From NCBI RefSeq assembly GCF_004010195.1, contig NC_057719.1, forward strand, positions 22,250,896 to 22,281,951: a DNA stretch of 31,056 nucleotides, read 5' to 3'. The position numbers were made by a program, and so were the translations under genes. This stretch comes from Chiloscyllium plagiosum (lineage: Eukaryota). The notes below the pieces were generated by a model. It did no database searches. It was given only the letters and a program-made list of their open reading frames with translations, and had not been told where the DNA came from. Positions 1,328 to 31,056 of the stretch are shown one piece after another (positions within the stretch are counted from its first letter, which is position 1; the number at the start of each line of letters is the position of its first letter).

Positions 1328-1454
1328 TAAACAAAGAACTGTGGGTGCTGAAAATCCAAGACAAAATAGTAATTGCTGGAGAAACTCAGCAGGTCTGACA
1401 GCATCTGTGGACAGAAAGCAGAGTTAACATTTCAACTCCAGTGATTTCTTCAGG
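1328..1454 (-). mobile_element. Short PLE-derived element (family C) with degenerate hammerhead
   Basis: Similar to 7409-7535 and 19748-19996. Minus strand reads CTGAAGA...TGAAATGTT. Flanked by ATATCA(A/G)ACAT at 1317-1327 and 1455-1465. Confidence 0.65.
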
Positions 1455-1771
1455 ATATCAGACATGTTGACTGTGATGTGTCCATGCCTGAAGAGGGAGT
1501 TAAGTCCTGCCCACGTGCGGATGAAAGGATTCCAAACATTAAAACTGTGCAGTTTTCTCGAAACAAAGGATCCAACAAATACGTCACAGCACGTGGACAT
1601 TGTGAAATAGAAATTAGTTGTTGTGTCCAGCAGTCCTTGTCAGCATTTAACTCCATGAAAGTGCCTAGTTTCGTTCTCTCTTTCTTCCTTACCGATATCC
1701 TTCCTGTCATTTCTGATGATTTGTTAGTTGTTAGCTGATACTCAGTGTTCAAGATTTAAATGTAAAATGTC

Positions 1772-1913
1772 AAAAATCACACAACATCAGCTAAATGATG
1801 AAGGAGCAGTGCTCTAAAAGCTAATACTTCCAAATAAACCTGTTGGACTATAATCTGGTATTGTGTGATTTTTAGCTTTGTCCACCCCAGTCCAACAATG
1901 GCACCTCCACATC
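1772..1913 (+). mobile_element. Short fold-back PLE-derived element (family B), internally deleted
   Basis: AAAAATCACACAA is inverted as TTGTGTGATTTTT. Degenerate hammerhead TGATGAAGGAGCAGTGCTCTAAAAGCT. Perfect 12-bp TSD ATGTAAAATGTC at 1760-1771 and 1914-1925. Confidence 0.75.
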
Positions 1914-2049
1914 ATGTAAAATGTCCACAAAGTATAGCACAAATTGTATTCACCACATGTCTTATCATATTTCAATGAGGAAAATTGATTAGCTCCTCTG
2001 GTTTGTCAAATGACTTCTGTATCATTTGTTTCAATTCAACACTTTCAAT

Positions 2050-2355
2050 GTGGCCACACTTATTTGGTCACAGCCTCATGCCTGAATCACAAGCTTGCAG
2101 ATGCAAATTCCATTCCAAGACTTGAACTTGAAAAGCCCAGGCTGATACTCCAGTATAGCATTATACCACCAGAGGAGTAGTCTTTCAGATGGGACTTTAA
2201 ACCAAGGTCCCATTCCCATTGCTCAGGTGGATGTGAAGTAAATCCAATGGCCCTGTTCAAATACAAATAGGAGAGGTTTCCCCAGTTTCCTGGCCAACAC
2301 CTATCTATCCATCCATCAACATCATCTGAACAGATTATTTAATCATTATTAAATT
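2050..2355 (+). mobile_element. Degenerate DeuSINE (SacSINE1/AmnSINE-like)
   Basis: Deu-domain-like string CTTTCAGATGGGACTTTAAACCAAGGTCCC...CTCAGGTGGATGT...CCTGGCCAAC...CAACATCA...AACAGATTAT. Recognised from memory; boundaries approximate. Confidence 0.55.
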
Positions 2356-2707: not shown

Positions 2708-3630
2708 AATCACAAAATCACAGAATTGTTATGGCATTGAAGGAGACCATTTGGCCCATCATACCTGTCCTGGTTCGATCACCTATTGCTAATTTCCTAA
2801 CTTCTGCCCATATCCCTACATACTATTTCTATCCACCAATCATCCAATGCCCTCTTGAATGCCTCATTTGAACCTCCTTCCACCACATTTCCAGGCAATG
2901 CATTCCCACAGCTACTCACTGTGTAACAGCCAATAAAAGACAAACAGAAATTTCATGACCACAGAGATTACTTCATCTATTGTTTGGCCTATTTCATGTC
3001 ATCACGTTTAATTCAATGCTTGATTTTTCCAAAACACATTGATACGTTTTTGATTTTCACATCACCCTTGCTTCTTTAGCACATCACATTATATTTCTTT
3101 TTTTTTCTTCTTTTTTTCTTTTTCTTTTCTTTTTCCCCTTTCTTTTTTAACCCCCACACTACCACCTAAGTGCGGTAGTGCTTATTTTATCCCCAGCACC
3201 CATGGTGTGTGTGTGCAGGTGTGAGACACAGTGAAAGACACAAAGTGCACCAATCTTTATTCAATTTCCACCACCAGGAAGATAGGAAAACACCTGGGTG
3301 GCCAGTGACAAACACTGCCTTCACATCAGAGGGCAGTGCTGTGTGATCAAAACAGTGAAGGGGAGGGTAGGGACTCACATCACATTATATCTGTGCCCTC
3401 TTGTCCTTTTCCCTGTTGCGAGTAGGAACAGTTTCTCCTGGCTACACTGACAGTCCACTTATGGTTTTGAGGACTGCTATCAAATCTCCCCTCAGCTATT
3501 TTCTCTCCAAGGAGAGCTGTCCCAACATCTTCAATCTATCTTTGTAACAGAAGTTCTTCATTTCTGGAACCATTCTTGTAAATCCCTCTGCCCATTTCGA
3601 TTCAAACTGAGCCACAGTATCTTCTGCATG
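2708..3630 (-). mobile_element. Old CR1 LINE 3' fragment, interrupted
   Basis: Short tandem tail (ATCACAAAATCACAGAAT) followed by CCATTTGGCCCATC. Antisense RT C-terminal motifs AAATCTCCCCTCAG and CCATTCTTGTAAATC resemble 10730-10840. Confidence 0.6.
3095..3375 (-). mobile_element. 5'-truncated retroposed 3' end with A-rich tail (L1/Tx1-like TPRT product)
   Basis: Perfect 15-bp TSD CACATCACATTATAT at 3080-3094 and 3376-3390. T-rich tract 3095-3148 is the tail on the minus strand. AATAAA on minus at about 3256-3261 and a hairpin at 3157-3180. Confidence 0.75.
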
Positions 3631-4666
3631 ATTAGCAGTGAGGAGAATATGACAGTTAAGGCTACAATTATAGATATCAGACTACAAAATAGTCTCACAT
3701 AAGTATTTATCAAGAGATGATGAAACTAAACTGTTTTACTGTATTCTACCAGATCACTCTTTAATGTTTAAAGATGGAACATGTAATAGTGGAAAATGAT
3801 GCAAAGAACATGTTGCTCTGATCCAACATGGATGATACTGAATAGGCTGCTGCTTTTTGAGATAGGAAAATACAAGAAGCCAAGATGCTTTGTAAACATT
3901 GGGACACTACCCATGCAGTTTGGGGCTAACAAAGGCAGCTGGACAACCTCCAGCACTTTTGGCGTGTGGATCAGGAAATTGGATAAAATTTATTTTCTTT
4001 ACAAAGAAAAAGAAGATTATCACCCTTCATAACGTTAAAGAATCTAATGAATGTCTGCTCACTCACCTCCCTATTTCCCTAGCTGAAGACATAAAGATGC
4101 TTTGGGACTTTTCATTGCAGCATAAGAACATGGAAAATATGCACTGTTGTGATGCTGGATTGCGCTGTAGCTGTTGAAAGACAGCATGCTAAACAGAAAA
4201 ATATAAATGGATATTTCCAGCATGACCTGCCAATGATATTCACTAACTTTTATAGTAAAAGGTCAGGCCTTTGAGGTGTGGACAAATTGAAAGGCAAAGA
4301 CATTTTTTTCTCTCGTTGCAAATTTCTCTTCTCTAGAGTTAGCAAGGGGGATGTATCAGCATTGGAGCGATACTCACCTATTAGTCAGGTTGTTAGTGGC
4401 TTTAAATGCCCCAATCTGGAGGCAATCAGTGGCACAGATTGTGGGCAAAGGGATGGCCTGTCAATGTCACTACCTTGGCTCTGATACCTTTCTAAAACGC
4501 CTTTCCCCACAACCCCCACCTCTGTATAAAATACATTGACCTTCTCATTGCTGGATTTCACAAAAGTAGGCCTGAACAGCAAACATTGTGATCCAGAAAT
4601 TACCTGCTAATAATGGACAGTAGCTTTTGGTGATACAGGTTGCTATTATCAAGCTCTGTGATTCAT

Positions 4667-5411
4667 CAGTGTAGTGTAAAGACAACAATTTCACCCTCAA
4701 TGTCAGCAAAATGAAGGAGCTGGTCATCAACTTCAGGAAGTGGTGTGGATGACGTGCATCTGTCTGTAACAATGGTGCTGATGTGGAGGTGGTCAAGAGC
4801 TTCAAGTTTCAGGGAGTAAATATCACCAACAATCTGTCCTGGTCCATTCACATCAAAACTACAGTCAAGAAAGTACACCTGTTAGGGTTAAGGAAACTCA
4901 GTATGTCTGCAATGACTCTCACCAATTTTGTGGGTGCAGTGTTGAAAGCATCCCATCTAGATGCATCTCAGTTGGTATGGCAACGGCTCTGCCCAAGACC
5001 ACAAGAAATTAGAGAAAGTTGTGAACGCAGCCCTATCTATCGCGAAAACGAGTATTCCTTCCATTGACTCCATCTACACTTATCCCTGCTGCAGGAAAGT
5101 ACCCAACATAATCAAAGACCATTCCCTGATTATGTTCTCTTCCACCCTCTTCCATTGAATAGAAGATACAAAAGCTTGAGAACACATACAGATAATTTCA
5201 GGAACAGCTTCTTCACCGCTGTTATCAAATTTATGAATGGATCTCTCTGATGAGAGTTGATCTTTCTCTGCATCTTCTCTGTATTCTGCATTCTGTTCTA
5301 TTACCCTAATGTGCTTATGTAAGGGATTATTTGTCAGGTTAGCATGTAAAACAATACTTTTCACTGCATCTCAGTACATGTGACAAAAATAAATCAAATC
5401 AAACCAAATCA
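4667..5411 (+). mobile_element. Rex1/Babar-type (or L2-group) LINE 3' end
   Basis: Translates to CKDNNFTLNVSKMKELVINFRK and VEVVKSFKFQGVNITNNLSWS, typical of the region after the RT core. Ends in an AATAAATCAAATCAAACCAAATCA tail. Confidence 0.75.
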
Positions 5412-6799
5412 TTGAGAAACCCATTGTCTATCTCCTCTTATTAGGTTAGTTGGTGGTTGATTGGATGAGTGATTTCAGTGATGGGATTGGCATGCTAATC
5501 ACCACCTGACACATTCATAACCATGCTTACAAAATGCAAACATTTTGCCAACATATTTACTGCACTTCAGTGTTTCTTTTTTTTTGCTTTGAGCATGTTT
5601 GTAGGCAAAACCGGTTTTATTGGAGCATCCTTTTGCTTTCTTGAAACTCAGTTTAACACAAATTTGTGGGCATGTCCCCTGCAACTCAACTCATCCTGAT
5701 TGTACTGTGTGACAAAAAAATCTCAGAGTTAGTTTGTAAAGCTGCAATGAGTTTCCTCCGGCTCCAGTTTATTTAAACAGATTTAACTGTTCTTTATTGT
5801 TTAACTCATGTCTATTAAATTTGATATATAAAGCTCAGAGGCTATATCTTTCTCTAAGTGTAATATTACTGTCAGTGCTCATGGGAGATTTATTCTCAAA
5901 TTTTCCCATTATTTCACAGCAACATCTACACGACCATGTGATATTGCACCAACTCAACTTTAGATCATGGAATTAAAATAATAGTCAACACTTCCTTGTG
6001 ATTTTTGACATGTATAAGGACTGTTTTAGACAAAGGTCAAATTAGTTTTAGAAATTTCACATGATTATGAAAATATTTCAAGAAGCACTCCTGGCAATAA
6101 TAGTCAAACGGGATGAGTTTACAGTGTGGCATTGGAAAATTTGGAGAAAAGCAAGAGTGAGTTGATGAATCTGGGCGTTAGAGGAAAAAAAACCTCTAAC
6201 AAACTTCACATTTTGTTCTTACTTTATTTGATCACTATATTGTAAATAGCAGACACCCACTTTTTGTCTTTTTTCTCAGTTTGCATGAGAATTCAAGTGC
6301 CATTTGACTAAGAATGCTGAGAAGTCCTCAGAGGGATTGTACAGATACAATCATTCCACACGGCACCTGAAAAGGGCCTATATGTACACTGCTGGGTCTT
6401 GAGATGCTGTTTGTTTCTAGCAATAGGATATTTTGATCAAATCTAGGTCTTGTGCTCTGCTGGATGGTTTTGATCATACGAGGAGACCATGAAGGAATTT
6501 ACCATGTGTTTTTTTTTCTATTCTGTCTTTGGTCTTGATTTATTTTACTTATTTCAGATTACATCGCTGTGGTAAGGGGGTGGGAGGCAGGGAATAGATA
6601 TCTGGTCAAGATGTTCTGAGCCATGACAAACGTTTGTAGGTTATTTGCTTGTCCATCAATTCCATATGATCATTATTGCAGAATGAACCACTTGCTATTT
6701 TAACACTTAGTTGTGGTGTGGAAGGTGGGTGGGCATGGGAATGGGTATTGGGAGCATTGGAAGAGGGACATGAATATGGATACTTCATCCTATTTTATG

Positions 6800-6937
6800 C
6801 TGTGGAGGTGTTGGATTTGGACTTGGGTGGACAATGTCAAAAGTCACACAACACCAGGTTATAGTCCAACAGCGATCCAAAAGCTTGTGATTTCAAATAA
6901 ACCTGTTGGACTATAATCTGGTGTTGTGTGACTTCTG
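6800..6937 (-). mobile_element. Short fold-back PLE-derived element (family B)
   Basis: Arms AAGTCACACAACACCAGGTTATAGTCCAACAG and CTGTTGGACTATAATCTGGTGTTGTGTGACTT. Perfect 13-bp TSD ATCCTATTTTATG at 6787-6799 and 6938-6950. Confidence 0.8.
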
Positions 6938-7009
6938 ATCCTATTTTATGGGTAATGCAATTCAACATTGAGGTTTGTAAGCTTTTGTTTGTGTCACTAT
7001 CAGATTCTA

Positions 7010-7265
7010 TGGAACAAAGTGGAGTATTGGAGTTAAGATGGAAATTAGCTACGATATAATTGAACGATATTTTACACACTGCAAGTACGAATCTGCAGCT
7101 TACAAATCGTGACCACAAACCTAACAAAGGGTTACACCTGAAACGTTGACTTCTCTACCTCCTGATACCGTCTGGCTTGCTGTGTTTGTCCGGCCTTCTG
7201 CCTATCTACTTACGATACAATTGAATTAAATGGCAGAACGGCCTACTTCTGTTTCTATGTTCCTA
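7010..7265 (+). mobile_element. CR1-type 3' tail fragment split by a PLE-derived insertion
   Basis: AATGGCAGAACGGCCTACTTCTGTTTCTATGTTCCTA resembles the CR1 tail at 23680-23750. Confidence 0.5.
7065..7210 (+). mobile_element. Short PLE-derived element (family E) with degenerate hammerhead
   Basis: CTAACAAAGGGTTACACCTGAAACGTTG fits a decayed CTGANGA-stem-GAAA core. 15-bp TSD TACGATA(T/C)AATTGAA at 7050-7064 and 7211-7225. Confidence 0.6.
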
Positions 7266-7408
7266 CTGCTGAATTGGCCACTGGAACACAAGCAGCACTA
7301 TCGATCCCAATAAAAATAATATTAATTGCTGCCACGCAATGTTTCTTCCCATCCCCTCTACCACCCAACCCTCCAAAGACATAAAATAAGAAAACAGAAC
7401 TAACTTAT

Positions 7409-7535
7409 TCAAAGAAGACTCATGGGACATGGAACATTAACTCTGTTTCTCTCTCCACAAATGCTGGTAGATTTGTTGAGTTTTTCCTCCACTTTCTGTT
7501 TATATCTCAGATCTCCAGCATCCACAGTACATTTC
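7409..7535 (+). mobile_element. Short PLE-derived element (family C), decayed
   Basis: Reverse-complement homologue of 1328-1454 and similar to the right arm at 19895-19992. Confidence 0.55.
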
Positions 7536-8050
7536 TTCCAATAAGGATGTACCTTGCTACTATCTCTCAAGGAAATGTCTGCCTTAGCCACCCACATGTT
7601 TGACTAAATTCTGCTTCCAAAGTTGGTGGGTTTGCCCTCTGCACCCACATCTCAGCATGACGATCACATGGTTTAGGCTACTTTTCACTGAACTGTGCAC
7701 GGTGGACTGGGAAATTTCCTACCTCACGTTGCTCACCTCAGTAACAAAGATCCAGCCCTATCTGTCACTGTTAAAAGAAGGTCCCCTCCATATGGTGCAG
7801 TATGCCTCCTAGCTGTATTTAGGTAACGTTCTAGCCTCAAAATAGGTCTGGCCTCTTCAATTCCTGCACAGGACACAGCCACATGAAACTTTAAAATTGA
7901 AAAAATATGACTAGACTTAATGTAGCACAATATGAATCACTTCTTCTTTAAAGTTGTTATGGTCTCTACATAGACCTTGGATTTCCCCTTTAAGCCATAT
8001 GGTTTATTGCTTGCTTGATGCTATCTTGGATTTTTCCATCCCTTACACGT

Positions 8051-8310
8051 CATTGAGGTGTGTACAAAGGCAGTTTCAATCATTTTGCAGCTACATTATA
8101 TGTTAATGACTATTTTCAGACAGTTTGCCGCCTTCACCTCTGCTTTCATTGTCACATGCTTTAGTTCACAATGTTACTCAAAACTTATTTTAGTAACAAG
8201 CAGATGTCAAGCATATTATGACCAAATTCCCCTTATTCCATGGTTGTACATTGTTTCATGCAGCTGTTACATTAAAGTACCTGAAAAAGGACTCATTACT
8301 GGCTTGAGAT
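8051..8310. repeat. Copy 1 of an old ~260-bp direct duplication
   Basis: Aligns by eye to 9417-9532 joined to 13067-13240, e.g. CATTGAGGTGTGTACAAAGGCA vs CATTGAGATGTGTATAAAGGCA, and TTGTTTCATGCAGCTGTTACATTAAA vs TTGTTTCATGCAGCTATTACATTAAA. Confidence 0.75.
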
Positions 8311-9899
8311 GCCCTAGAGAATATCAGTTTAAGAGTTGGATATTGGTCGGTATTTTTGCAGAGCCTGGGAGACTTCATGGAAACTTTAGAAATGATGGGC
8401 AGTACCCAGATGCAGAACTCCCACCCTGATTTCCAACAGATCCTGTTTTTGCTGAGGGCCGAAAGGGATCAGGGTATGAATTTCACAGATTGGAAACCTA
8501 AATTCAGCAGGGACATGTGAAGTAAGTGCTGCGTTCAAACAGATCCTATTTTGGTGATTAAAGGGCCTCAACTTGCATATGGGTGTCAACAATTAATGGA
8601 GTAAACGTAAATGCTTTTGAAGATTGGATAAGTCTGTCATGATTTCAAGTTTTCCTTCTACCCCCTGCATTATAAACCATACTTAAAAAAGAGCTGAAGC
8701 TGTCAATGAGAGTTTAAAAATGAACTGCTTGACTGCTTCAGTAGACAGGGTCATCTACTGCAGGTTAGCAATTAGTAATGGAATCAGACCACAGTTCCTT
8801 GCGAACATTTCCTTTCAGGTTATTATTATATCATTTTCAATGAGTTTCAAAAGCTACAATTATCTCTGCAAGTGGTTCTGAGTTCACAGTGTGATTGACA
8901 GTTTAAAAAGGCTATTAAAGGCTTACTTGTCTTTGCTGTGGGTTTGACTGAAATTTGTTTGTTTTTGATAGCGATTGACCAGTTGAGATTTGCATATTTT
9001 GGATGGGCTGTATGGATAATTCCTTTCCTCTTTATTGAACATATACACGTGAGAACTATTATCAGATTGTTCGACTTACAATTTTTCATCTCCACATGCC
9101 TTCTGTGGTCTGCCCATGGTAGATTCTAGGTAAGTTGCCTGAGAGAATGGGTGGCATGAGTTGGCATTGAGTTGCTTTGGTGGTTATATGGGGTAATTGG
9201 GAGACTGGTAGCAAGTGTTGACATTGAGTTGGCTTGGAGAGTTTGAGGGGTCATGTGGTGGATGACAACACAAGGTATGAGGATTAGAGAGCCTAACAAT
9301 TAGTGAAACAGCTGTAATAAAGTCTTGGAGCACTGAGACAGACCTACTAATGAGCCTACCTTGGTTACCTCCATCGCAAGCCCATCTCTGTTCCAAAAGT
9401 TGGTGGGCTTGAAAATCATTGAGATGTGTATAAAGGCATTTTCAATCCCTTTTATTTTCATTTGGCTTGTGGTCTTCAACTTTCTGTTTTTATTGTCACC
9501 TCAGTTTAATTGTCTGTGTTAATCGAAACTTATAGAGCCATAGAGTCATACAGATGTACAGCAAGGAAACAGACCCTTTGGTCAAACCTGTGCATGCCGA
9601 CCAGATGTCCCAACCCAATCGTCCTACCTGCCAGCACCCGGCCCATATCCATCCAAATCCTTGCTATTCATATACTCATCCAAATGCCTCTTAAATGTTG
9701 CAATTGTACCAGCCTCCACCACATCCTCTGGCAGCTCATTCCATAAACGTATCACCCTCTTTGTAAAAAAAGTTGCCTCTTAGGTCTCTTTTATATCTTT
9801 CCCCTCTCACCTTAAACCTATGCCGTCTAGTTCTGGATTCCACCACCCCAGGGAAAAGACTTTGCTGTGGTTCTGTTCGCCGAGCTGGAAGTTTTTGTT

Positions 9900-9939
9900 G
9901 CAAACGTTTCGTCCCCTGTCTAGGTGACATCCTCAGTGC
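9900..9939 (-). ncRNA. Minimal type I hammerhead ribozyme motif
   Basis: Exact inverted copy of 10560-10599. Confidence 0.8.
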
Positions 9940-10325
9940 TTGGGAGCCTCTTGTGAAGTGCTTCTGTGGTGTTTCCTCCGGCATTTATAGTAGCCTGTCC
10001 CTGCCGCTTCCGGTTGTCAGTTTCAGCTGTCTGCTGTAGTGGCCGGTATATTGGGTCTAGGTCTATGTGTTTGTTGATGGAGTTTGTGGATGAGTGCCAT
10101 GCTTCTAGGAATTCCCTGGCTGTTCTTTGTTTCGCTTGCCCTATAATGGTAGTGTTGTCCCAGTCAAATTCATGTTGCTTGTCGGTCTGCGTGTGTGGCT
10201 ACTAGGGATAGCTGGTCGTGTTGTTTCGTGGCTAGTTGATGTTCGTGGATGCGGATCATTAGCTGTCTTCCTGTTTGTCCTATATAGTGTTTTGTGCAGT
10301 CCTTGCATGGGATTTTGTACACTAC
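9920..10325 (-). pseudogene. PLE GIY-YIG endonuclease C-terminal domain remnant (one frameshift)
   Basis: Reads VVYKIPCKDCTKHYIGQTGRQLMIRIHEH...ATHAD/DKQHEFDWDNTTIIGQAKQRTAREFLEAWHSSTNSIN. Contains the VY and YIG motifs with CxxC between them, plus the conserved R, E and N. Confidence 0.9.
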
Positions 10326-10559
10326 ATGAATTTGACTGGGACAACACTATCATTATAGGGCAAGCGAAACAAAGAACAGCCAGGGAATTCCTAGAAGCAT
10401 GGCACTCATCCACAAACTCCATCAACAAACACATAGACCTGGACCCAATATACCGGCCACTACAGTGGACAGCTGAAACTGACAACCGGAAGCGGCAGGG
10501 ACAGGCCACTATAAATGCCGGAGGAAACACCACAGAAGCGCTTCACGGGAGGCTCCCAA

Positions 10560-10599
10560 GCACTGAGGATGTCACCTAGACAGGGGACGAAACGTTTGC
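10560..10599 (+). ncRNA. Minimal type I hammerhead ribozyme motif
   Basis: GCA-CTGAGGA-T-GTCACCT-AGAC-AGGGGAC-GAAA-C-GTT-TGC: stem I GCA/TGC, CUGANGA core, stem II, GAAA, self-complementary AAACGTTT stem III and a GUU site. Confidence 0.8.
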
Positions 10600-10689
10600 A
10601 ACAAAAACTTCCAGCTCGGCGAACAGAACCACAGCAACGCGCACCCGAGCTACAAATCTTCTCACAAACTTGGAAAAGACTTTGTCTAT

Positions 10690-11310
10690 TTACTCTAATA
10701 TGCCCCATATAATTTTGTAAATCTCTATAAGGTCACTCCTCAGCCTCCGATGCTCCAGAGAAAACAGCCCCAGCCTGTTCAGCCTCTCCCTATAGCTCAA
10801 ATCCTCCAATCCTGGCAACATCCTTGTAAATCTTTTCTGAACCCTTTCAAGTTTCACAACATCTTTCCGATACGAAGGAGACCAGAATTGCAAGCAATAT
10901 TCCAACAGTGGCCAAACCAATGTCCTGTACAGCCGCAACATGATGTCCTAACTCCTGTACTCAATACTCTGACCAACAAAGGAAAGCATACCAAACGCCT
11001 TCTTCACTATCCTATCTACCTGCAACTCCACTTTCAAGGAGCTATGAACCTGCACTCCAAGGTCTGTTTGTTCAGCAACACTTTCTAGGACCTTACCATT
11101 AAGTATATAAGTCCTGCTAAGATTTACTTTCCCAAAATGCAGTATCTTGCATTTATCTGAATTAAACTCCATTTGACACTTCTCGGCCCATTGACCCATT
11201 TGATCAACATCCTGTTATAATCTGAGGGTAACCTTCTTCGCTGTCCACTACACCTCCAATTTTGGTGTCATCTGCAAACTTATTAACTGTATCTTTTATG
11301 CTCACATCCG
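10690..11310 (-). pseudogene. CR1 ORF2 reverse transcriptase C-terminal remnant
   Basis: KFADDTKIGG, QWAEKCQMEFNSDKCKILHFG, LYRTLVWPLLEYCLQFWSP and LERVQKRFTRM, broken by frameshifts and stops. Confidence 0.9.
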
Positions 11311-11947
11311 GCACCTCACCTGTGACTATCGATTATACAAATATCGCAGCAAGAGGCCCAGCAATCACTTCTCTAGCTTCCTACAAAGTTCTCGGGTACA
11401 CCTGATCAGGTCCTGGGGATTTATCCATCTTTATGTGTTTCAAGACATCCAGCACTTCCTTCTCTGTAATATGGACATTTTGTATGGTGTCACCATCTGT
11501 TTCCCTACATTCTATATCTTCCAAATCATTTTCCACAGTAAATACTGATGCAAAACACTCGTTTAGTATCTTCCCCATTTTTTGCGGCTCCACACAAAGG
11601 TCGCCTTGCTGATCATTGAGGGACCTTATTCTCTCCCTAGTTACCCTTTTGTCCTTAATTTGTAAAAGCCCTTTGGATTCTTCTTAATTTTATTTGCCAA
11701 AGCTTCTCATGTCCCCTTTTTGCCCTCCTGTTTCCCTCTTAAGTACACTCCTACTTCCTTTATACTCTTCTAAGGATTCACTCGATCTATCCTGTCTATA
11801 CCTTACATATGCTTTCTTCTTTTTCTTAACCAAACCCTCAATTTCTTTAGTCATCCAGCATTCCCTATACCTACCAGCTTTTCCTTTTACCCTGACAGGA
11901 ATATACTTTCTCTGGATTCTCGTTATCTCATTCCTGAAGGCTTCCCA

Positions 11948-12720
11948 TTATCCAGCCGTGCCTTTACCTGCGAACATCTGCCCCCAGTGAGCTTTCGAAA
12001 GCTCTTGCCTAATACCGTCAAAATTGGCCTTTTTCCAATTTAGAACTTCAACTTTTAGATCTGGTCTATCCTTTTCCATCACTATTTTAAATCTAAAAGA
12101 ATGATGGTCACTGGCCCCAAAGTCCTCTCCCACTGACACCTCAGTCACCTGCCCTGCCTTATTTCCCAAGAGTAGGTCAAGTTTTGCACCTTCTTTACTA
12201 GGTACATCCACATACTGAATCAGAAAATTGTCTTGTACACACTTAACAAATTCCTCTCCATCGAAACCCTTAACACCATGGCAGTCCCAGTCTATGTTTG
12301 GAAAGTTAAAATCCCCTACCATAACCACCCTGTTATTCTTACAGATAGCTGACATTTGCTTACAAGTTTGTTTCTCAATTTCCCTCTGACTATTAGGGGG
12401 TCTATGATACAATCCCAATAAGGTGATCATCCCTTTCTTATTTCTCAGTTCCACCCAAGTATCATCCCTGGATGTATTTCCGGGAATACCCTCCCTCAGC
12501 ACAGCTCTAATGCTATCCCTTATCAAAAACGCCACTCCCCCTTCTCTCTTGCCTCCCTTTCTATCCTTCCTGTTGCATTTCTATCCTGGAACATTAAGCT
12601 GCCAGTCCTGCCCATCCCTGAGCCATGTTTCTGTAATTGCTATAATATCCCAGGCCCATGTTCTTAACCATGTCCTGAGTTCACCTGCCTTCCCTGTTAG
12701 GCCCTTTGCATTGAAATAGC
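11948..12720 (-). pseudogene. CR1 ORF2 apurinic-like endonuclease remnant
   Basis: GLYHRPPNS, VMVGDFNFPNIDW, LDLLL and GASDH motifs. Confidence 0.9.
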
Positions 12721-12865
12721 TGCAGTTTAATTTATTAGTCCTACCTTGTCCCTGCCTGCCCTGACTGTTTGACTCACTTCTATTCTCAACTGTACCAGTC
12801 TCACATTGATCGCTTTCCTCACTATCTCCCTGTGTCCCACCGCCACACCCCCCCCCCCCCCCCCC

Positions 12866-13060
12866 TCCACCAGTACATTAGTCTCCTTCCAATTTAAGTG
12901 CAATCCGTCCTTCTTGTACAGGTCACTTCTACCCCAAAAGACATTCCAATGATCCAAAAATGTGAATCCTTCTCCCATACACCAGCTCCTCAGCCATTCA
13001 TTCATCTGCTCTATCCTCCTATTTCTGCCATCACTAGTTCATAGCACCGGGAGTAATCCA
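12866..13060 (-). pseudogene. CR1 ORF1 SGNH esterase C-terminal remnant
   Basis: MNEWLRSWCMGEGFTFLDHWNVFWGRSDLYKKDGLHLN carries the DGLH block V motif. Confidence 0.85.
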
Positions 13061-15688
13061 GATATTACTTATTATCAAAACGAGTAGATGTTAAATATAT
13101 TATGACTAAATTCCCTTTGTTCCATGGTTGTGGATTGTTTCATGCAGCTATTACATTAAAACCAATCATTGATGTCAGATTCTCAGTAAGCACCTGAAAA
13201 TACAACTACCATAAGTTCCACTATAGGTCTTGAGGTTGCTTCCTTCCAGTGATGTTTAGTCACTGAGAGCCATAATTCATACTGGAAGTGTTTTGCATTC
13301 TCAAGAGTAGTGTTTTGATATCCAAGCGTTTTACATTGTCCATACATCCATGCTTCAAACAGGGATCATTGCCTAATGATGCTTTTGTCCAAATGTCTGA
13401 AGACTGACAGCCAGTTGAAATCAACTTATAAATCTCAGACCAAAAATTGCACTTGGACCCTCAGTGCTACACATTGTGTTTCATTCAGTGCTAAAGGGCT
13501 TTCCCTCATTCTGAGCTTTGTATTTAATCACAGATGATGCCTAATGTAGCATTTATGTTGTATATAATATTATCTATTTTGTCTACATCTTATCTATTCT
13601 GTCCCTTTGAAAGACTAATCCAGTTAACGCCCCCACTCTGCATTTACACACTGTCCTGTTACTTTACTTTCCCCTTTGATTAATAACCTAATTGCCTTTT
13701 TAGGTTTTCAATTAATCTATTTCCTTTTGGTCATCTCATTCCAAATTATTAAAAAAAAAACCGACTGATTAAAAATGTCTTCATCTTCACAGAAGTTATT
13801 TTGATAATTGTCTTAAATCAGTCCTCGGACTATTGAACCTCCTGTTGACTTAACATTACCATAAGAGATGCAAACAATGTGATCCTAAACCCTTGCCCTC
13901 CCCTCCACAAAAAAATGGCCATTAGAGATATTGAAACAACAAAATACCTTCACAAGTAATTTCCAATGCTCCAGTGATGTATTGTGCAGCCTCACAGTTC
14001 AATCTATTATTGATAACATAATTAATAAACATTTATGTTTGAAAATGATACTTTAGCTGATGAGGAGACAGTATCAAGGAGTGGTAAGATTGTCTGGATT
14101 AGGAGGGCCCTTAGAGAAAATAAGGATTTGTTAAAATTACATTAAGTAAATCCCTTAAAAGCCATGTTTACATGAAAATAAAGTGTACTTGTTTCAACGT
14201 GGCAGAAATTATTCTGTAATTATACAGCCAGCAGGGCTAGCAGACATTGGAGCCACTGTTGTGGCTTTATAGAATGTTATTTTAGCAATGGAGTAGGAAT
14301 TTCAGAGCTCTGATGAATTTATATCAACCTTGGGGTATTTTTCCGAATTGTCAAATGCGCAAGAGAGCTGGAGAACTGTAAAGTCAACTATAATGTTCTA
14401 GAGTGTCAAGTCTGTTGCTGAGTTAATTGTCACAAATACTCTCAACATTACTCTGATGGGTGTAATTTTGCACTAGTGTCATTAGGAAGCAGCTACATTG
14501 GTATTGATGCATCAGTACTCCTCTATGTTGAACACCATCAGGAGGAAGCAGTAAAGGAGGCAAGGGAACTATGTACTGTGGTATGGGGGCTTTCAGTACT
14601 TATTACTAAGAGTGGCTCAGCAGCATCACAACTAACTGAGCTGGTTGTAACCTCAAGGTCATAGCTGCTAGACTGGAAGTGCAGCAGGTGCTAAAGGAAC
14701 CAGAAAAAGGGATAAATATACCTGACCTCATCCTTACCAATCTGCCTGTTGTGGCTTCATCTATCTATGACAGTAGCAATAAAAGTGATCACTGCATAAT
14801 CCTGTTGAAACAAAACCCCATCTTCATTACAAATGCAACTCTTCAACAAATTTGATTTATTACAAGATACTAAGAAATGGCTTCAGATACTGGATACTGC
14901 AAAGGCTATGGGCTCTGACAACATTCCAGCAGACTTGTGCTTCAGAGCTTGTTTCCCCCTAGCCAAGCTGTTCTGATACAGCTATGGCATCTCCCTGATA
15001 ATGTACATCATGTCCACAAAAGCAGGGCAAATCCAGCCCATTCAATTATCAGTCTATATTTGATCATCAAAAGCATGATGGAAAATGTCATCAAGAGTGC
15101 TATCAAGCAGTACCTGCTTAGTAATAACCAGTTCACTGACAATCAGTTTGGATTTTACCAGGGACACTTAGCTCCTGATCTCATTATACACTCAAACATG
15201 GACAAAAGAGCTAAATTCCAGAGTGAAGTGAAAGTTGCTGCTCTTGACATCAAGGAGCTCTCACAAAACTTGAGTCAATGGGAATCAGGGGAATATCATC
15301 TAATGGTTAGATCATACCTAGCACATAGGAAGATGGCTGTGGTTGTCAGAGATGTGTCATCTCAGCTCCAGGACATCACTGCAGGAGTTCAGTAAGGTAA
15401 TGTCTGGGGTCCAACCATCTTCAGCTGCTACATCAATGACCTTCCCTCCAACATAATAACAGAACAGCGATGTTTACTAATGATTGTGCAATGTTCAATA
15501 TGATTTACAACTTCTCAAATACTTCTCAAATATCCAAATGCAGAAGACTTGGACAACAACCAGGTTTGTACTGACAAGTGGCAGATGACATTCGTGCCAC
15601 AAAAATGCCAGGCAATGACAGTGTCCAACCATTATCCTTTGATATTCAGTGGCATAACTGTCACTGTGTTCCCCGCAATCAAAATCTT

Positions 15689-15744
15689 GGACGTCCATAA
15701 CTGGAAACTGAACTGGACATCCATAATTGGAAACTGAACTGGAC
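15689..15744. repeat. 26-bp tandem duplication
   Basis: GGAC(G/A)TCCATAA(C/T)TGGAAACTGAACT twice, plus GGAC. Confidence 0.9.
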
Positions 15745-15852
15745 TAGCTACATAAATACAATGACTACAAGAGCAAGTCAGAGGCTATTAATCCTGCAGG
15801 AAGTAACTCACCTTCTGACTCCCCAAAGTCAGTTCACCATCTACAAGGTACC

Positions 15853-18731: not shown

Positions 18732-18810
18732 TATAGTAAGTTACTTGTTCCCACATTACATTGTGCGACATATAGTAAGTTACTTGTTCCCACATTACAT
18801 TGTGCGACAT
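18732..18810. repeat. Perfect 39-bp tandem duplication
   Basis: TATAGTAAGTTACTTGTTCCCACATTACATTGTGCGACA twice. Confidence 0.95.
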
Positions 18811-19589: not shown

Positions 19590-20065
19590 ATTAGAGGTGG
19601 TGGACTTCAGATGGGCTACAAACTGAGAGCCTATCCATCTCGCTCGGGTGGTGTAAAATATGCCCATAACATTATTCAAAACAGTGCGGAGAGTCATGAC
19701 ATTGTCTTGGCAATATTTCCCTTTCAACTGACATTACCAAAAGACTAAATAAAAAAAAACTAAGAACTGCAGATGCTGGACATCAGAAACAAAAATAGGA
19801 ATTGCTGGAAAACTCAGAAGATTTGGCAGCATCAGTGGAGAGAAAGCAGTGGCTCTAACTGAGAAATATTGCAAATTAATTTTGCAGTGACCCGTTCTGA
19901 AGGAGAGTCACTGGACCCAAAATGTTAACAATGTTTTCTGTCCACTGACGTTGCCAGATCTGCTGAGTTTTTCCAGCAATTTCTGTTTTTGTATCGCCAA
20001 AAGACTATTTAGTCATTTGTTCATTTTGAAGTTGTGTGCAGATTGGTTGCCAATCTTACCTGTGT
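19590..20065 (+). mobile_element. Highly decayed DeuSINE-like copy, interrupted
   Basis: CTTCAGATGGG...GGTGGTGTAAAA...TCTTGGCAATATTT...TGTGCAGATTGGTTGCC is similar to 2180-2350. Confidence 0.45.
19748..19996 (-). mobile_element. Fold-back PLE-derived element (family C)
   Basis: Arms AATTGCTGGAAAACTCAG and CTGAGTTTTTCCAGCAATT. Hammerhead remnant CTGAAGGAGAGTCACTGGACCCAAAATGTT. TSD CCAAAAGACTA at 19737-19747 and 19997-20007. Confidence 0.75.
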
Positions 20066-20940: not shown

Positions 20941-21058
20941 GTAAAAACAAGGACTGCAGGTGCTGGAAACCAGATTCTAGATTAGAGTGGTGCTGGAAAA
21001 GCACAGCAGTTCAGGCAGCATCCGAGGAGCAGGAAAATCGACGTTTTGGGCAAAAGCC
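20941..21058 (-). mobile_element. PLE terminal fragment (family D)
   Basis: Near-identical to 30841-30958 and truncated inside hammerhead stem II. TSD TGGGGGAA(A)CAT at 20929-20940 and 21059-21069. Confidence 0.75.
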
Positions 21059-21252
21059 TGGGGGAACATGTGAGTAGGTACAGCAGCATTTTGTGGCATA
21101 GCAGTTGTGGAGGAACATGGCTGGTGGGTACAGGATACTAGGAATGGCATGAGGTGTGCGGCACCTCTAGGTACAGGTTGTGAGGTGGCTCGGTTCGCAT
21201 GATGGGGCTTGCAGGTATGAGGACTGCAGCATATTTTGGTTTTATTCTTTTT

Positions 21253-21589
21253 TTAGATTAGATTACTTACTTAGATTAGATTACTTACAGTGTGGAAACA
21301 GGCCCTTCGGCCCAACAAGTTCACACCGACCCGGTGAAGCGCAACCCACCCAGACCCATTCCCCTACATTTACCCCTTCACCTAACACTACGGGCATTTT
21401 GGAATGGCCAAATCACCTAACCTGCACATTCTTTGACTGTGGGAGGAAACCTGAGCACCCGGAGGAAACCCACGCAGACACGGGGAGAATGTGCAAACTC
21501 CACACAGTCGGTCACCTGAGGCGGGAATTGAACCCGGGTCTCTGGCGCTGTGAGGCAGCAGTGCTAACCACTGTGCCACCGTGCTGCCC
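21253..21589 (-). mobile_element. HE1-type V-SINE
   Basis: On minus: A box TGGCACAGTGG, B box GGTTCAATTCC, V-domain TGTGGAGTTTGCACATTCTCCCCGTGTCTGCGTGGGTTTCC, CR1-like tail GGCCGAAGGGCCTGTTTCC and TAATC repeats. Confidence 0.9.
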
Positions 21590-24989: not shown

Positions 24990-26830
24990 TACATTCTGGC
25001 AAATCCAGTTATCATATTGCCTTTCCCACCAATGTGAACAATATACACATTGAATGACTATATCAGTAAACTCCATCTGAATAATCTCACATTTTAGATT
25101 TTTAACCTTTCAATGATGCCTGTGGATTGTGGTCAGTCCTGATTAGTATTTCATTGCAAACCTATTGGATATAGCCTTCAGAAGATTAAAGAGCCAATAA
25201 CAATCCCAAAGTCTGCTGTTCTACGGTAGAGTGCTTCCTCTGGTGTTGGTTTAATGTCTCAGAAAAGTACCCGATTGGCTTCCCCTTTCCCAACTTATTA
25301 GCTTTCAATAAGACTGCATCTAGCCCCATGTCATGAACATCAATTCCCATTTTGAAAGATTTGGTAAAATCAGGGGTGTCTAACACTGGTCCATTTATTA
25401 TGATTACCTTCAGATTCTCCGAGGCTGCTTGATATTCTTCTGAACAGATCGCTTTTGCCTGTTCCTGTAACAGAACAGTTAAAGGTGCACCTATTGTCCT
25501 CAAGCTGGGCACAGATTTCCAATAAAACCTGCATATTCCTAAAAATCTCATGATTCCAGTTTCATGTGAGAAATAGAGAATTCAGTCACTGCCTTCACAT
25601 TTGCCATTCCCTATCCTTGTCCAATGTCCCAGGTAAGTTATGGTACTTACCTGTACCCCTTCAAAAGATTAATTTAATAAATAAATGAGGCATTGCCAAC
25701 CCTGCTGTTACAATCTTTTAACTGAAGATATGGATAGCAATCTGGTTTTGCAACTGCATTTATTTTTTTGTGGTTTATGTAAAATCTTGTTGATCCTTCT
25801 AATTTAGAAAATAACATTATTGTTGAACCTTGCCAAAGCAGTTAAAGTTCAATCAAGTGATTTTTCAGCACGGATGGAAGCTCTGTTGCCACCTGAGCTT
25901 GTTTCTCTTGGCTGAACTAAGGGTGATGCTGTTTTAAAATTAGAATGTCCTGTAACTACATCAAGTCTAGCCAGCATCGTTTTTCCAGCTGAATTGTTAC
26001 ATATTTCATTAAACTCCCCAAAAAAGCTAACTAAATTTCCCATTACCCTTCCTCTAAATATGGTAACACAGTCTCAATCTCACTTAGTATTTCTGTTGGT
26101 TGACCAGTTGAATCGTAGGAGACGCACAACTGTCAACTTTCCTTTCCACTTCTCGTGCTATCTCTTCATCCCTCACTACTCTTATAACCTGACACAACTG
26201 CTCTTTAGAATGATACAGAAGTAAAGGAGCCCATTCAGCCCCAAGTCTGTACTGCTAAACATACACTGATAACTCCACCAGTCCCACTTTCCTGCACCAG
26301 GCTAAAATATTATGGCTCTTTAAGTGCTCATCTAAGTACTTTTCAAAGACGGTGATGTTTCCTGCCTCAATATCCTCACAGGCAGTATATTCTAGACCCC
26401 ACCACACTCTGGGTGGAAAAAGCTTTTCCTCAAATTCTCTCTAAACCTCCTGCCTTTCACTTTAAAATAATGCAGCCTCTGATCTTCTTCCCTGCAATAT
26501 CGTTTCAACATGTTTGTTTGACAACAACATTTTTTTCTTCCTGAAGTCATGAGTATCCATAATTTTATCAACCCTCCTAAAGAATGTACAGGGATCAATG
26601 AATTTTAATTTCAGAGGTTCACTTTGAAGAGACAATAATACCAATACATTGTATCCTGCTTGAAATATTCTAATCATAGCATATTGCCCTACCCGTTCTT
26701 TCACTTTTGCCTGTGAAGTTCTTAATTACTCCTTAACATCATTTTACCCTCCTGGAAATCTCCTTCACCACCTCCTCCACTGCTTAAATAAGGCCATGTG
26801 GAAAATGCAATAAGTTCCAGTAATTTTCTT
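24990..26830 (-). mobile_element. Decayed Gypsy LTR-retrotransposon pol remnant (Gmr1-like order)
   Basis: RT-connection/RNase H: RFLGICRFY...PDFTKSFKMGIDV...PIGYFS...STVEQQTLGLLLAL, then TDHNP. RT N-terminus at about 25850-26040. Integrase C-terminal GPY/F-like region RIFQAGYNVLVL...KFIDP...NMLKRY at about 26495-26700. Confidence 0.8.
26205..26480 (-). mobile_element. CR1 3' fragment nested in the Gypsy remnant
   Basis: FKVKGRRFRENLRKSFF on minus, and tail-proximal GCCCATTCAGCCC. Confidence 0.65.
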
Positions 26831-26924: not shown

Positions 26925-27180
26925 CTTGGCGGTGAGCTGCCTTCTTGGACCACTGCAGTCCATGTGTTGAAGAGACACTCACAATTCAGTTAGGAAGCAA
27001 GTTTCAAGGTTTTTACTGAGCAACAGTGAAGGAATGATGATTTGTTTCCAAATCAGAATGATGTCGCCTTTGGAAGGAAAGCTGAAGGTGATAGCATTCC
27101 CATTAATTCACTGAAATTGTCCTTCTAGGTGTGAGATGTTATAAGCTTGGAAGGTGTTCCTGATGGAGAATTGGTGAGTT
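26925..27180 (-). mobile_element. 3' fragment of the second CR1-group LINE family
   Basis: GGTGAGCTGCCTTCTTG is the reverse-complement homologue of CAAGAAGGCAGTTCACC at 16465-16481. Confidence 0.6.
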
Positions 27181-30100
27181 ATTTATAATATAATGCATCT
27201 AGATACTAGTCTTTCTTTTAAAATAATTACAATCATGAGGTTAGCTTGTTCTGAAATACCCTGTGTATTGAAATGGTAAGGTGCCACTGTTTATCTTGCT
27301 ATATTTATTAATGGGCATTTATTGTATATCTATAGTTATGGTTGATGGCAAGTTGCCTTCCTGAACAATTGCAGAGTGTAGATAGAGAGACATTTCCAAG
27401 TTGATAACCCAACAATCATTAAGGATTGATGATACATTTCCAAAACAAATATCTGGCTTGGATGAGAAACTGCAAGTGGTGGAGCTTTCATGTTGTGATG
27501 AGTTTGTTCTTCCAAGTGATAGAAGTTTGGAAGACATCACCCTATTACCCAAGATAATAAATCAAAGGCACTAATCTTCTTTAAGACCTGGTTTTGAATT
27601 TTAGGATGGATGGAAAGAGTCAGGAAACCCAGAAGTACAGGTTGCCCTGAAAGCCCTAGAGTTTAAATCCTTACAGTTTTAACGGCAGAGCCTGTGCATT
27701 TTATTTTACCCCAGGTTACCTGTCCAATGTATAGGCTTTGCTGCTGTAAAGTAACTTACCTCAGTGAACTGTTCTGCTCACCTCCTTTTACCTTTCGGGT
27801 TTCCCAAGACCAGGGAATCTCAGTTGGCATTTTTTTTTAAAAATTGAGCACTGTTCAAATGAGGGAATGCATCTTCTTGAAAAGATAAAAAGAAATGTCA
27901 ACAAGCCACCCATCTCTTGATGGCAAATTCATAGCCTGACCGTCATCTGCTCCCCTATCCCCCAAACGAATCTCCACAAATCACTGGCTCCATCAAAAGT
28001 CTGATAAAAATGGTTTGATGCAGGTTGACATTTTGTTTGAAACTTTTAGCATTACTTCTCACTATCCCAAAATTGTCCATTTTGTGGTTTAATATAAACT
28101 ACCAAGAGTCTGCCCTTCCTTGCTTCTCATGGAAATGGCAATACTTTGATTGAATATATTGCAAAAGCTCCTCTGAGATGCATCAGTTGCATGCATGAAA
28201 AAAACACAATCTTTGAAATAGTTGTAAAATGAAAATGTTTTGTCAGACTACCTGGAAAGGTGCAGATTGAGATGTTGTATATTTCTGATATTCACTGTTA
28301 ACATTATAAATTGCCAGCATTTTCAAATATTTTTGATTACTTGGAACATTTGCATGAGTTTATCCGAGTTCAAACCCAGATCTGCTCATTCCTCTGCAAA
28401 TCTGCACCGAGAACATGCAAAAGGTTCAAACCTGAATAATTATTTGAGGGTCAGGGTGTGACATGCAGGTCTTACATGATCTGTGCACTCAGTCATTTTA
28501 GAGGTCATCTGGATTCTGGTGCAGCTCCCAGGTCATGACTGCAGGCAGTAGCTGAGTTGAAAAAGAAAACAAATCCTTGAAAAAGCTCGAGAAAAATCAT
28601 TGTTTCATTGAGACAGTTTTTCACTGTTGACGCAAGCTTGAGGGAGTATAACCTCATCAAATTGATAGGGTGTTACTTCTGGACAACAAATCCATCAGGT
28701 TTACTGATGGGTAGTAGTGACCATGTAGGTTAGGCCAGTCCAATTTTGTTTGTAAAGAGGTCTCAGCATCACGTTTAAAAATAGTGAATCACTTGTACAA
28801 ATCAATTGAAATGACTGTTTGAATGGAGGGGGGATTGTCATTTATCATTGGCTTTGAGGGAAAGCAATTGAGCTATAGATTTTTTTTCTTCGCTGAAGTA
28901 GCTGTCAGTCAATGTGACATGTTTAGTTTGTGCGCTGGACAGTTAGGTGAATTCACAAACAGATTGTAAGCGCATAACTGTGTGAACAGAGGAAGTGAAG
29001 CTGAGGCATATTCTGGTATGGATTTAGTCATTTAAAATTTGAAACAACCTGCACCCATAGAACCCATGGATTACAACGCAAATGAATTGTCCTCGAGTCA
29101 TGTGGTGTATTGGCAGGAGAGATAGTGGGTTCAGGTGCATCTCCTGTCATTCCCTGCAATAATGTTCGGGTAAGCCAGGATGGGGTCTTCCATTCAAAAT
29201 GGCCCAATAAGATGAAAACGTCTTCCAATTTTAATTTCCATTGATTTAAATGAAAATATATGCTTTCTTGTCGTCTTTAATCCAACACTGCAACCTGCAT
29301 ATTGAGATACTGGTCTGAAGTATTTCCAGCTGTGTATGCCTGTATTGCACCATCCCTGAGGCTACTTGCTATTTATCTCTAATTAAGGTTCTTCATCTCT
29401 TCATGTAGCTTGACACTAACTTTATTTTTATCCAAATGTAGGTTACTAATTGCAATTCTCTCATAATAGGGTCGAAGACCTCCTTCAAAAATAGTGTCTT
29501 CTTTTCTCCTGGTTTCAGAGCCATGTCATCAATTATGTGATCATGATACTCTCATTATACAACAGAATATGCATTGTAAAAAATTCACCTTATCAATGGC
29601 AAATTTGCTGCAAGTTGTCAAAACAACTTCATAGTTGGCAATTTTGATTTTTCTAATCTGTTGAGAATTTCAAACGCACGGATGCCTTTTGCAAAATGGC
29701 AAGAGTGATGTCTATGCTATTAAGAATAATGGCCACTTGATGATTTACAAGAACAGAAGATGCAGAATCTTACAATGAGACACATCCTTCTACTAAAATA
29801 ACAATTTCTGAAACGATGGAAATGTTTTGGACTTTGAAACAGAAGTTGAACTTGACATCGGAGCAGCTGCTTCAGACCAGCAAACAAAAACTCCGAAAGT
29901 CCAGAAAGCAAAGATTTCCAATGGACGGGCAAATCACCACAAAGCCATCCTCATTCTCCCTTGATTTTGAGGATATGTTTCATATATCTGAGAACCTGGA
30001 CAGTCGATGGCTTAGTAGGGTTGTCCTAAACTGGCTTCCTATTGCAACTTCCATTGATTAAGTGACTCAAACACATGTCGATGATCCCAATGTCAGACAT

Positions 30101-30227
30101 ATAGAACATCTTCAGTGTTATGATTCCACCTGATGGTAATGTCGGACAAATTGTGGAATGAAACCTGGCTTGCTAAACAGTAAGTTTTTTTTTGCAACTC
30201 TTTTACTATTGGGACCAGCCACTGATA

Positions 30228-30840
30228 TTTTAAATTCATTCACATGATTACAGTATTGTTAGCTAGGCCAGCATTTATTGCCCATTCCAAACTTTTAAGA
30301 GTCAACCTCATTGCTGTGGGTCTGTAGTCACATATATAGGCCAGACCAGGTAAGGAGCAGCACAGTGGCTTAGTGGTTAGCACTGTTGCCTCACAGCGCC
30401 AAGGACCCGAGTTTGATTCCAACCTCGGGTCACTGTCTATGTGGAGTTTGCACATTCTTCCCATGTCTGTGTGGGTTTCCTTTGGGTGCTCCGGTTTCCT
30501 CCCCAATCCAAAGATGTGCAGGTTAGGTGAATTGGCCATAGTGTTCAGGGATGCGTAGATTAGTTGCATTAGTCAGCGGTAAATGTAGGAGAATTGGTCT
30601 GAGTGCATTACTCTTCGGAGGGTCAGTGTGGACCTACTGGGTCAAATGCCCTGTTTCCACAATATTGGGATTCTATGATTTCCTTCGCCAAAGGATATTC
30701 GTGAACGAGATTTTTTTTTTCTGACAACTGACAATGGATTCATGGTCATCATTAGATTCTTAATTTCAGACTTTTTAAAATTGAATTCATATTCCACCAT
30801 CTGCCATGTTGAGATTCAAGCCTGGGTTCCAAAGCATTAG
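30228..30840 (-). mobile_element. tRNA-derived SINE (same family as 17122-17461), interrupted by HE1
   Basis: GCATTTATTGCCCAT, TAGGCCAGACCAGGT and ATTCCACCATCTGCC are reverse complements of motifs in 17122-17461. Confidence 0.75.
30354..30680 (+). mobile_element. HE1-type V-SINE
   Basis: A box TGGCTTAGTGG, B-box-like GTTTGATTCC, V-domain GTGGAGTTTGCACATTCTTCCC and tail CCTGTTTCCAC...GATTCTATGA. Confidence 0.9.
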
Positions 30841-31056
30841 GTAAAAACAATGACTGCAGATGCTGTAAACCAGATTCTGGATTAGAGTGGTGCTGGAAAA
30901 GCACAGCAGTTCAGGCAGCATCCGAGGAGCAGGAAAATCGATGTTTCGGGCAAAAGCACTTCATCAGGAATACAAGCAGAGTGACTGAAGGGTGGAGAGA
31001 TAAATGAGAGGAGGGTGGGGGGTGGAGAGAAAGTAGCATAGAGTACAATAGATGAG
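30841..31056 (-). mobile_element. PLE terminal repeat (family D) running off the window end
   Basis: Near-identical to 20941-21058 and continues through a hammerhead motif. Confidence 0.75.
30936..30970 (-). ncRNA. Minimal hammerhead ribozyme motif (slightly mutated)
   Basis: Minus strand CTGATGA-A-GTGC-TTTT-GCCC-GAAA-CATC. One stem II mismatch, and the site reads AUC. Confidence 0.6.

Follow-up and report, generated by a model that had tools for sequence, protein, structure and literature searches.

A 31,056-nt window of the Chiloscyllium plagiosum genome (contig NC_057719.1, positions 22,250,896 to 22,281,951 of the forward strand) contains ten insertions that carry hammerhead ribozymes or their remains. 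These are probably short products of target-primed reverse transcription by endonuclease-containing (EN+) Penelope-like elements (PLEs) of about five families, which then decayed neutrally. In our best reading the inserts are neither miniature inverted-repeat transposable elements (MITEs) nor retrozymes, and they do not establish a separate class of mini-elements. The insertions have accumulated over a long time in this carpet-shark genome, as identity between the arms of two-armed inserts ranges widely, from 303/311 in e6 down to 78/96 in e7 (labels e1 to e10 follow position along the window). All ten lie roughly where an earlier note on this DNA had placed them, and together they make up about 7.6–7.7% of the window, or 5.0% without e6. 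That note had described some ten hammerhead-bearing PLE mini-elements; our analysis partly supports it, the description being right in kind and overstated in detail.

The discreteness of the insertion events, proposed in the note from seven target-site duplications (TSDs) of 11–15 bp, is borne out by a controlled comparison. Seven of the nine elements with both ends in the window score at least 10 exactly at their borders (0–1 mismatch), a score reached by one of 1500 random pseudo-elements. The AT content of the duplications is 70%, compared with 60% for the whole window. For e6, which lies within a long interspersed nuclear element (LINE), the minus-strand frames on either side both include QSLF, the residues that the duplication encodes, providing an independent mark of the insertion point. 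No convincing TSD was found at the borders of e5 and e7, where the best candidates matched over 7/8 bp and were not accepted; the absence from e7 may reflect rearrangement of the target site. The division into about five families also holds. BLAST among the inserts separates family A (e6), family B (e9 and e10, 95% identity), family C (e2, e3 and e7, 78–94%), family D (e1, e5 and e8, 73–82%) and family E (e4, with no BLAST match to other inserts), and families B and D have a common 3' block of 73–79% identity. A profile search of the window for further copies of families B–E, with profiles made from these same copies, gave none at E<1 outside the listed elements.

Family A provides the direct link to a PLE open reading frame (ORF) and, as the note held, is the only family so tied within the window. 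Insert e6 (9865–10671, 807 bp, both strands; TSD 13 bp) is a head-to-head pair of 5'-truncated PLE ORF ends. Its tail-less left arm (9865–10327, minus strand) includes the GIY-YIG motif region and matches residues 327–463 of P0001, a reverse transcriptase-bearing protein of a bamboo shark, at 84% and 92%, with one frameshift near 10184. The right arm (10324–10671, plus strand) encodes the last 84 codons, matching residues 380–463 at 90%, and has a 37-nt tail. Both arms keep an intact core (9936 on the minus strand and 10563 on the plus strand), and the right arm contains a minimal type I hammerhead of family A at 10563–10596 (plus strand). There, stem II holds the stop of the ORF, and the core holds an ATG at 10569 from which 34 codons stay open as far as the end of the tail. 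The e6 protein fragment is 76–91% identical to predicted proteins of Chiloscyllium punctatum, Hemiscyllium ocellatum and Rhincodon typus (8 matches among 25 candidates), which points to a carpet shark of the bamboo/epaulette group. It is through P0001 that family A connects to an EN+ PLE ORF, the window itself carrying the endonuclease end only. Residues 264–335 of P0001 contain no cysteine, a state which, from the description in PMC8557442, fits Poseidon rather than Neptune or Nematis. At 807 bp and with coding sequence, e6 is a truncated PLE, to which the term 'mini-elements' in the earlier note does not apply; the term may or may not suit e10, which runs off the window.

Half of the inserts (e2, e3, e6, e7 and e8, in families A, C and D) are head-to-head pairs of arms, a structure absent from the earlier note, and in each of them a tail extends beyond the symmetry on one arm only. 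In family C, e2 (1774–1913, plus strand; TSD 12 bp exact, or 14 bp with one mismatch) has an inverted, tail-less second arm of 17 nt (1774–1790) and a forward arm that begins at the C3 position (1795), carries the core changes C3A and G12A and has a 42-nt tail. In e3 (6800–6935, both strands; TSD 15 bp with one mismatch) the inverted arm (6800–6872) has a 41-nt tail and overlaps by 3 nt a forward, tail-less arm (6870–6935) which begins within stem II and is without CTGANGA. Insert e7 (15850–16072, both strands) is a fold-back whose hairpin centre is a single nucleotide at 15947; each arm starts 10 nt upstream of C3, the right arm has a 29-nt tail and the cores of both arms are mutated. Junctions thus differ within one family. 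Elsewhere, the arms of e6 overlap by 4 nt, and e8 of family D (19748–19996, both strands; TSD 11 bp) folds back around a centre within the core, at about 19897, with a 38-nt tail on the left arm and a tail-less right arm carrying G12A. The left arm of e8 also holds a 31-nt insert (19853–19883), 30 nt of which are identical to 18512–18542, 1.3 kb upstream. This insert replaces the GAAA/stem III half of the hammerhead in that arm and is flanked by a 6-nt direct repeat; it has the appearance of a templated insertion, made either as the element integrated or in a repair afterwards.

Such palindromes, 136–807 bp long in the five copies, could recall MITEs or fold-back DNA transposons in which the hammerhead likeness is incidental. 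We regard this as extremely improbable and as largely refuted by the lack of matching terminal inverted repeats or of a fixed short TSD. The inverted arms are unequal, the tail lies outside the symmetry and five of the ten inserts have no second arm. Moreover, e6 encodes a PLE endonuclease end, strict hammerhead cores are confined to the elements, and the TSDs are variable at 11–15 bp, whereas the earlier note had named fixed duplications of 2–8 bp as the mark of DNA transposons.

Priming from two nicks followed by head-to-head joining, by contrast, would explain why two arms and a single tail lie within one TSD. The anole Poseidon protein, as described in PMC11167929, nicks and extends the two strands of its target and begins reverse transcription at two internal positions of the RNA, one on either side of the tail; uncleaved RNA is the main substrate, and 5'-shortened RNA gives shorter products. 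For the shark inserts, each of two staggered nicks would prime a cDNA from one of two initiation sites, and the two cDNAs would then be joined head-to-head, leaving a tail-plus and a tail-minus arm within one TSD. Self-priming has been proposed as an alternative origin of inverted arms (PMC3846280). As described for complex insertions of EN+ PLEs (Arkhipova 2013, PMC3846280; Craig 2021, PMC8557442), the present inserts show head-to-head arms, palindromic junctions, heavy 5' truncation, a tail at one end only (29–42 nt here, 30–40 bp in those accounts) and TSDs within the range of about 8–15 bp. They differ from those accounts in that most units here consist of the terminal 110–150 nt only, with 5' ends clustered at the hammerhead.

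The remaining inserts are single-armed in the window. In family D, e1 (1332–1532, minus strand; TSD 11 bp, 1321–1331 and 1533–1543) has a PLE end with tail at 1332–1465 whose core boxes are intact (C3 at 1453) and whose stem II is decayed, and e5 (7402–7537, plus strand) is an old arm with a tail and four core mismatches. Insert e4 of family E (7065–7210, plus strand; TSD 15 bp with one mismatch) has a decayed core at 7121 with two mismatches, reaches a further 56 unassigned nt upstream and stops at the column where tail-less arms stop. In family B, e9 (20943–21059, minus strand; TSD 12 bp with one mismatch) is a 117-nt arm with a tail that is cut within stem II, without CTGANGA and with G12A. 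Insert e10 (30841–31056, minus strand) has a PLE end with a tail and both core boxes intact (C3 at 30967, G12 at 30947), and continues upstream through pyrimidine-rich sequence for 89 nt or more before leaving the window. Within the TSD of e1 lie 67 nt (1466–1532) that match nothing else in the window and may be upstream body or captured filler; they include CTGAAGA at 1488 on the plus strand, without the proper spacing to stem II and GAAA.

The inserts have in common a fixed 3' block about 80–105 nt downstream of the minimal hammerhead. Counted from C3, the ends of the longest arms fall near -12 (e1, a provisional value given the unmatched 67 nt past it), 0 (e2), +12 (e3), -56 (e4), -7 (e5), -391 (e6), -10 (e7), 0 (e8), +9 (e9) and beyond -89 (e10), so that seven of the ten end at most 12 nt from C3. 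The predicted cleavage site, at about +28, is the end of none of the 15 arms; the two second arms that are short stop at around +44 and +60. Under an exponential truncation model the clustering has p of about 0.014, a post hoc value for a set picked for hammerhead remains. Clustering at the front of the ribozyme suggests copying of an uncleaved RNA that starts or stalls there. The cDNAs would mostly end at this point if the RNA began there, through initiation in the 5' pseudo-long terminal repeat (pLTR) and subsequent run-off; pLTRs are reported to contain an internal promoter (PMC2377424). The same ends could arise from reverse transcriptase stalled by a folded or protein-bound ribozyme.

A strict hammerhead scan of both strands of the whole window (CTGANGA, a stem with at least 3/4 pairs, and GAAA) found four sites, all inside the elements, which cover 7.7% of the window; dinucleotide shuffles gave a mean of 0.65 sites and reached four in 2/200. 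With one mismatch allowed there were 30 matches, eight of them within elements. Loose matches alone therefore carry little weight, and decayed copies were recognised by alignment instead. Among the 12 arms that reach G12, four keep both boxes (1453, 9936 and 30967 on the minus strand and 10563 on the plus strand), two lack CTGANGA (e3 and e9, which start in stem II) and six have one to four core mismatches. G12, the general base of the hammerhead (PMC6155905), is changed to A in five. The note's statement that every insert contains a hammerhead, intact or decayed or truncated, stands for the four complete arms and has to be tempered for the two without CUGANGA and the five with G12A. At positions 15.2–16.2, four of the 12 arms have CG, another four, each from family C, have GC, and the last four have either TG or CA; the pattern is a palindrome (dimer-type stem III) with a compensatory variant and CpG decay. 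The features of minimal PLE hammerheads (CUGANGA and GAAA boxes, an extra nucleotide after A9 and a G10.1–C11.1 pair) are present in both arms of family A and in the family-B majority. Window copies of families C, D and E have decayed cores only, e1 keeping both boxes with a weak stem II. That PLE terminal repeats carry minimal type I hammerheads, as the note had taken to be established, is supported. Most landed copies would appear to be dead ribozymes without further role.

Type I hammerheads and long TSDs would also be consistent with retrozymes of the non-LTR kind (LTR, long terminal repeat), in which monomers from tandem arrays self-cleave, circularise and are reinserted by the reverse transcriptase of a PLE. 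Retrozymes derived from pLTRs, including dispersed monomers, are reported from vertebrates, one of them a chondrichthyan (bioRxiv 10.64898/2026.07.22.740005), and one joint in public contigs of family B goes back 85 nt. This origin nevertheless appears very unlikely. No insert lies in a tandem array (none of the 14 TRF rows of the window), no arm starts at the predicted cleavage site, and the one-sided tail on head-to-head arms is the signature of PLE insertion. The cores are of the minimal PLE type rather than canonical, boundaries are not fixed and most copies have cores that seem dead, while the go-back joint is a single one among the 15 of 71 joints listed. Of the two origins offered in the earlier note, retrozyme-like or truncated PLE, the fit is with truncated PLE ends. 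The inserts do resemble non-LTR retrozymes in being short, non-coding and pLTR-related, with a type I hammerhead and dispersed monomers (PMC7229834; bioRxiv 10.64898/2026.07.22.740005). They differ in that the tandem units with intact cores that define retrozymes in these sources are not seen in the window. The retrozymes described by Cervera (2020, PMC7229834) have canonical hammerheads and abundant circular RNA, neither of which is seen for the window, and Li (2026, bioRxiv 10.64898/2026.07.22.740005) derives tandem retrozymes from pLTRs.

Genome-wide statements come solely from a comparison of public runs with e10 (query 30757–31056, likeness 85, four of the 24 listed runs), in which contig counts and depth are not copy numbers. 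In two species, 71,682 contigs (run X1) and 74,337 contigs (run X10) align to e10, with partial alignment in 9,397 and 9,941. This indicates that family B is very abundant and common to at least two species, in line with the very large population envisaged in the earlier note. Among the 40 of 85 base differences listed, the public majority at 30958 in stem II is C (96–98%), restoring a pair broken in e10, and C at 30942 (51–67%) likewise restores the stem III palindrome. G12 is changed in 9–19% and its CpG partner in 8–20%, the decay of single copies being largely at CpG. As the majority letters depart from e10 exactly at the places where e10 breaks the ribozyme, the minimal hammerhead of the family-B majority is intact, and it is once they have landed that copies decay. 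For family B, a consensus without the core, which the note had considered would speak against its reading, is thus not what was found.

The same comparison bears on whether families B–E are dedicated, non-autonomous PLE derivatives resembling short interspersed nuclear elements (SINEs), that is, hammerhead-headed units of 110–150 nt with their own pLTR promoter that use PLE proteins in trans. We hold this to be unlikely, though several observations are in its favour. The 5' ends of seven of the ten inserts cluster at the hammerhead, pLTRs have the reported internal promoter, non-autonomous PLE derivatives are known (PMC8557442) and family-B frames have no ORF match. In addition, the end block of family B is 4–20-fold in excess of the e10 upstream body, which dedicated short elements would likewise produce. 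Loose ends are also frequent at 30971, a position 4 nt upstream of C3, in 530 and 538 contigs and 181 reads. Contig depth on e10 peaks at 30907–30916, is 19–37% of the peak over the CTGATGA box and falls to 4–5% just upstream. However, pure truncation was rejected as the cause of this drop. The consensus of the loose ends at 30971 has letters in common with e10 at its start, and among the contigs listed one returns to e10 at 30990, indicating that sibling subfamilies with other upstream bodies explain part of it. Furthermore, no boundary is common to two copies in the window, and e10 and e4 reach upstream of the hammerhead.

RNA run X21 yielded 2331 reads out of 12.96 million records, on both strands and with 97% continuing into unlike sequence, as would be expected from passive read-through. 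No pile-up of molecule starts or ends was seen, including at the predicted cleavage site, although a poly(A) single-cell library makes this a weak test; nor was there a go-back joint among the RNA joints listed, poly(A) selection losing circles. The more specific idea that families B–E propagate themselves by transcription from the front edge of the ribozyme, copying of the uncleaved RNA in trans and insertion by priming from both nicks is likewise doubtful. A dedicated non-autonomous family, as implied by the note's short ribozyme-containing elements, is not shown.

Among the listed family-B joints, four are on opposite strands at differing places, and the one that goes back 85 nt is found in three and two contigs of the two species. 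The public contigs of family B also have a step at 30880–30887. Head-to-head joints occur at 30909/30957, 30930/30966 and 30934/30971. An opposite-strand joint at 30839/30882, in two contigs of each of two species, connects the tail end to the tail-less end, so that the two presumed initiation sites are joined tail to tail.

Several results weigh against assigning all the inserts to EN+ PLE reverse transcription. Arm ends are clustered, whereas random truncation predicts spread, and the e10 upstream body is far rarer than the end block (4–5% of the peak and 13–23% of core depth). RVT_1 in P0001 has E 3.3e-6, just under the Pfam cutoff, and its relatives P0005 and P0006 have weak GIY-YIG scores (E 0.027–0.028), also below cutoff. 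Three protein searches with two translated family-B frames gave no matches, which is weak evidence because the region is non-coding; families C–E were not searched. Separately, pattern scans for related loci found none in metagenome contigs and none in viral contigs. Families B–E are taken as PLEs from hammerhead type, tail, inversion and TSD. As to the hammerheads themselves, an Rfam search gave 12 matches at E≤10 with no hammerhead among them. Finally, none of nine folded core segments beat its own shuffles (z -1.19 to +0.85), a null which is uninformative because the motifs are of dimer type, decayed and were folded as monomers.

The class of element is already known: solo minimal hammerheads attributed to truncated PLEs are published for several animals, with thousands per genome, mostly single, in the account of Cervera and De la Peña (2014, PMC4209133). 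The shark inserts share with them a minimal type I core with an extra nucleotide between A9 and G10.1, the G10.1–C11.1 pair, the palindromic 15.2–16.2 positions, several families per genome and a predominance of single motifs or opposite-strand pairs 100–700 bp apart. The density differs, at about one insert per 3 kb here against about 4,000–9,000 motifs per genome in coelacanth and Xenopus, where a strict descriptor was applied. Family A resembles the anole Poseidon element PAc (Frangieh 2024, PMC11167929) in several respects: its start codon lies in the hammerhead core, its ORF runs into the pLTR at its end, its two 3' ends follow the ATG by about 65 and 100 nt, the TSDs are AT-rich and the RNA that is copied is apparently uncleaved. 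In contrast to PAc, which was assayed, the inserts are known from sequence, and in families B–E no long frame opens within the core. PLEs are listed in all vertebrate lineages covered by PMC4350176. Our literature search, outside which lay most subscription papers, Repbase and Dfam, found no paper on shark PLE hammerhead stubs. As Rfam misses all inserts, the hammerhead and PLE content of sharks may be under-annotated.

With the kind of element already known, the useful parts of these observations are scale and geometry. If, across the genome, ends pile up at the ribozyme's front and are absent from its cleavage site, tens of thousands of junctions could test how PLEs transpose. Such junctions could show where the template RNA starts, whether hammerhead cleavage precedes copying and whether it is priming at both nicks that produces inverted arms. 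Were families B–E SINE-like after all, they would account for several percent of the DNA in shark genomes, and their copies would document the mechanism of PLE transposition in nature on a very large scale.

The window is repeat-rich, and other repeats lie around the inserts. The LINE that hosts e6 (about 9530–13040, minus strand), which we take to be of CR1/L2 type, is fairly young and has an endonuclease domain at 11948–12577. Minus-strand frames of 85 and 101 codons (796–1755) flank and enter e1; they have no Pfam matches and are possibly an old mobile-element relic. The surroundings of e7 (about 14700–16500) are presumably an older, decayed LINE-like stretch, and a Pfam search of 14919–15392 gave no match. 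At 3080–3390 lies a 281-bp insert that has no relation to the PLE families; one of its ends is T-rich, its 15-bp duplication is perfect, and it is a minus-strand retro-insertion with a poly(A) tail. Two copies of a repeat in opposite orientation (21253–21587 and 30357–30675; 84% over 158 nt and 74% over 101 nt) are, we assume, SINE-like. A reverse transcriptase-associated RNase H-like domain at 25186–25581 (E 4e-14) is probably the relic of an LTR retrotransposon. Smaller repeats comprise a 94-nt pair of 84% identity (8183–8276 and 13067–13160), perfect tandem duplications of 39 bp (18732–18810) and 26 bp (15688–15744), and a 12-bp direct repeat at 5977 and 6096 that encloses 107 nt.

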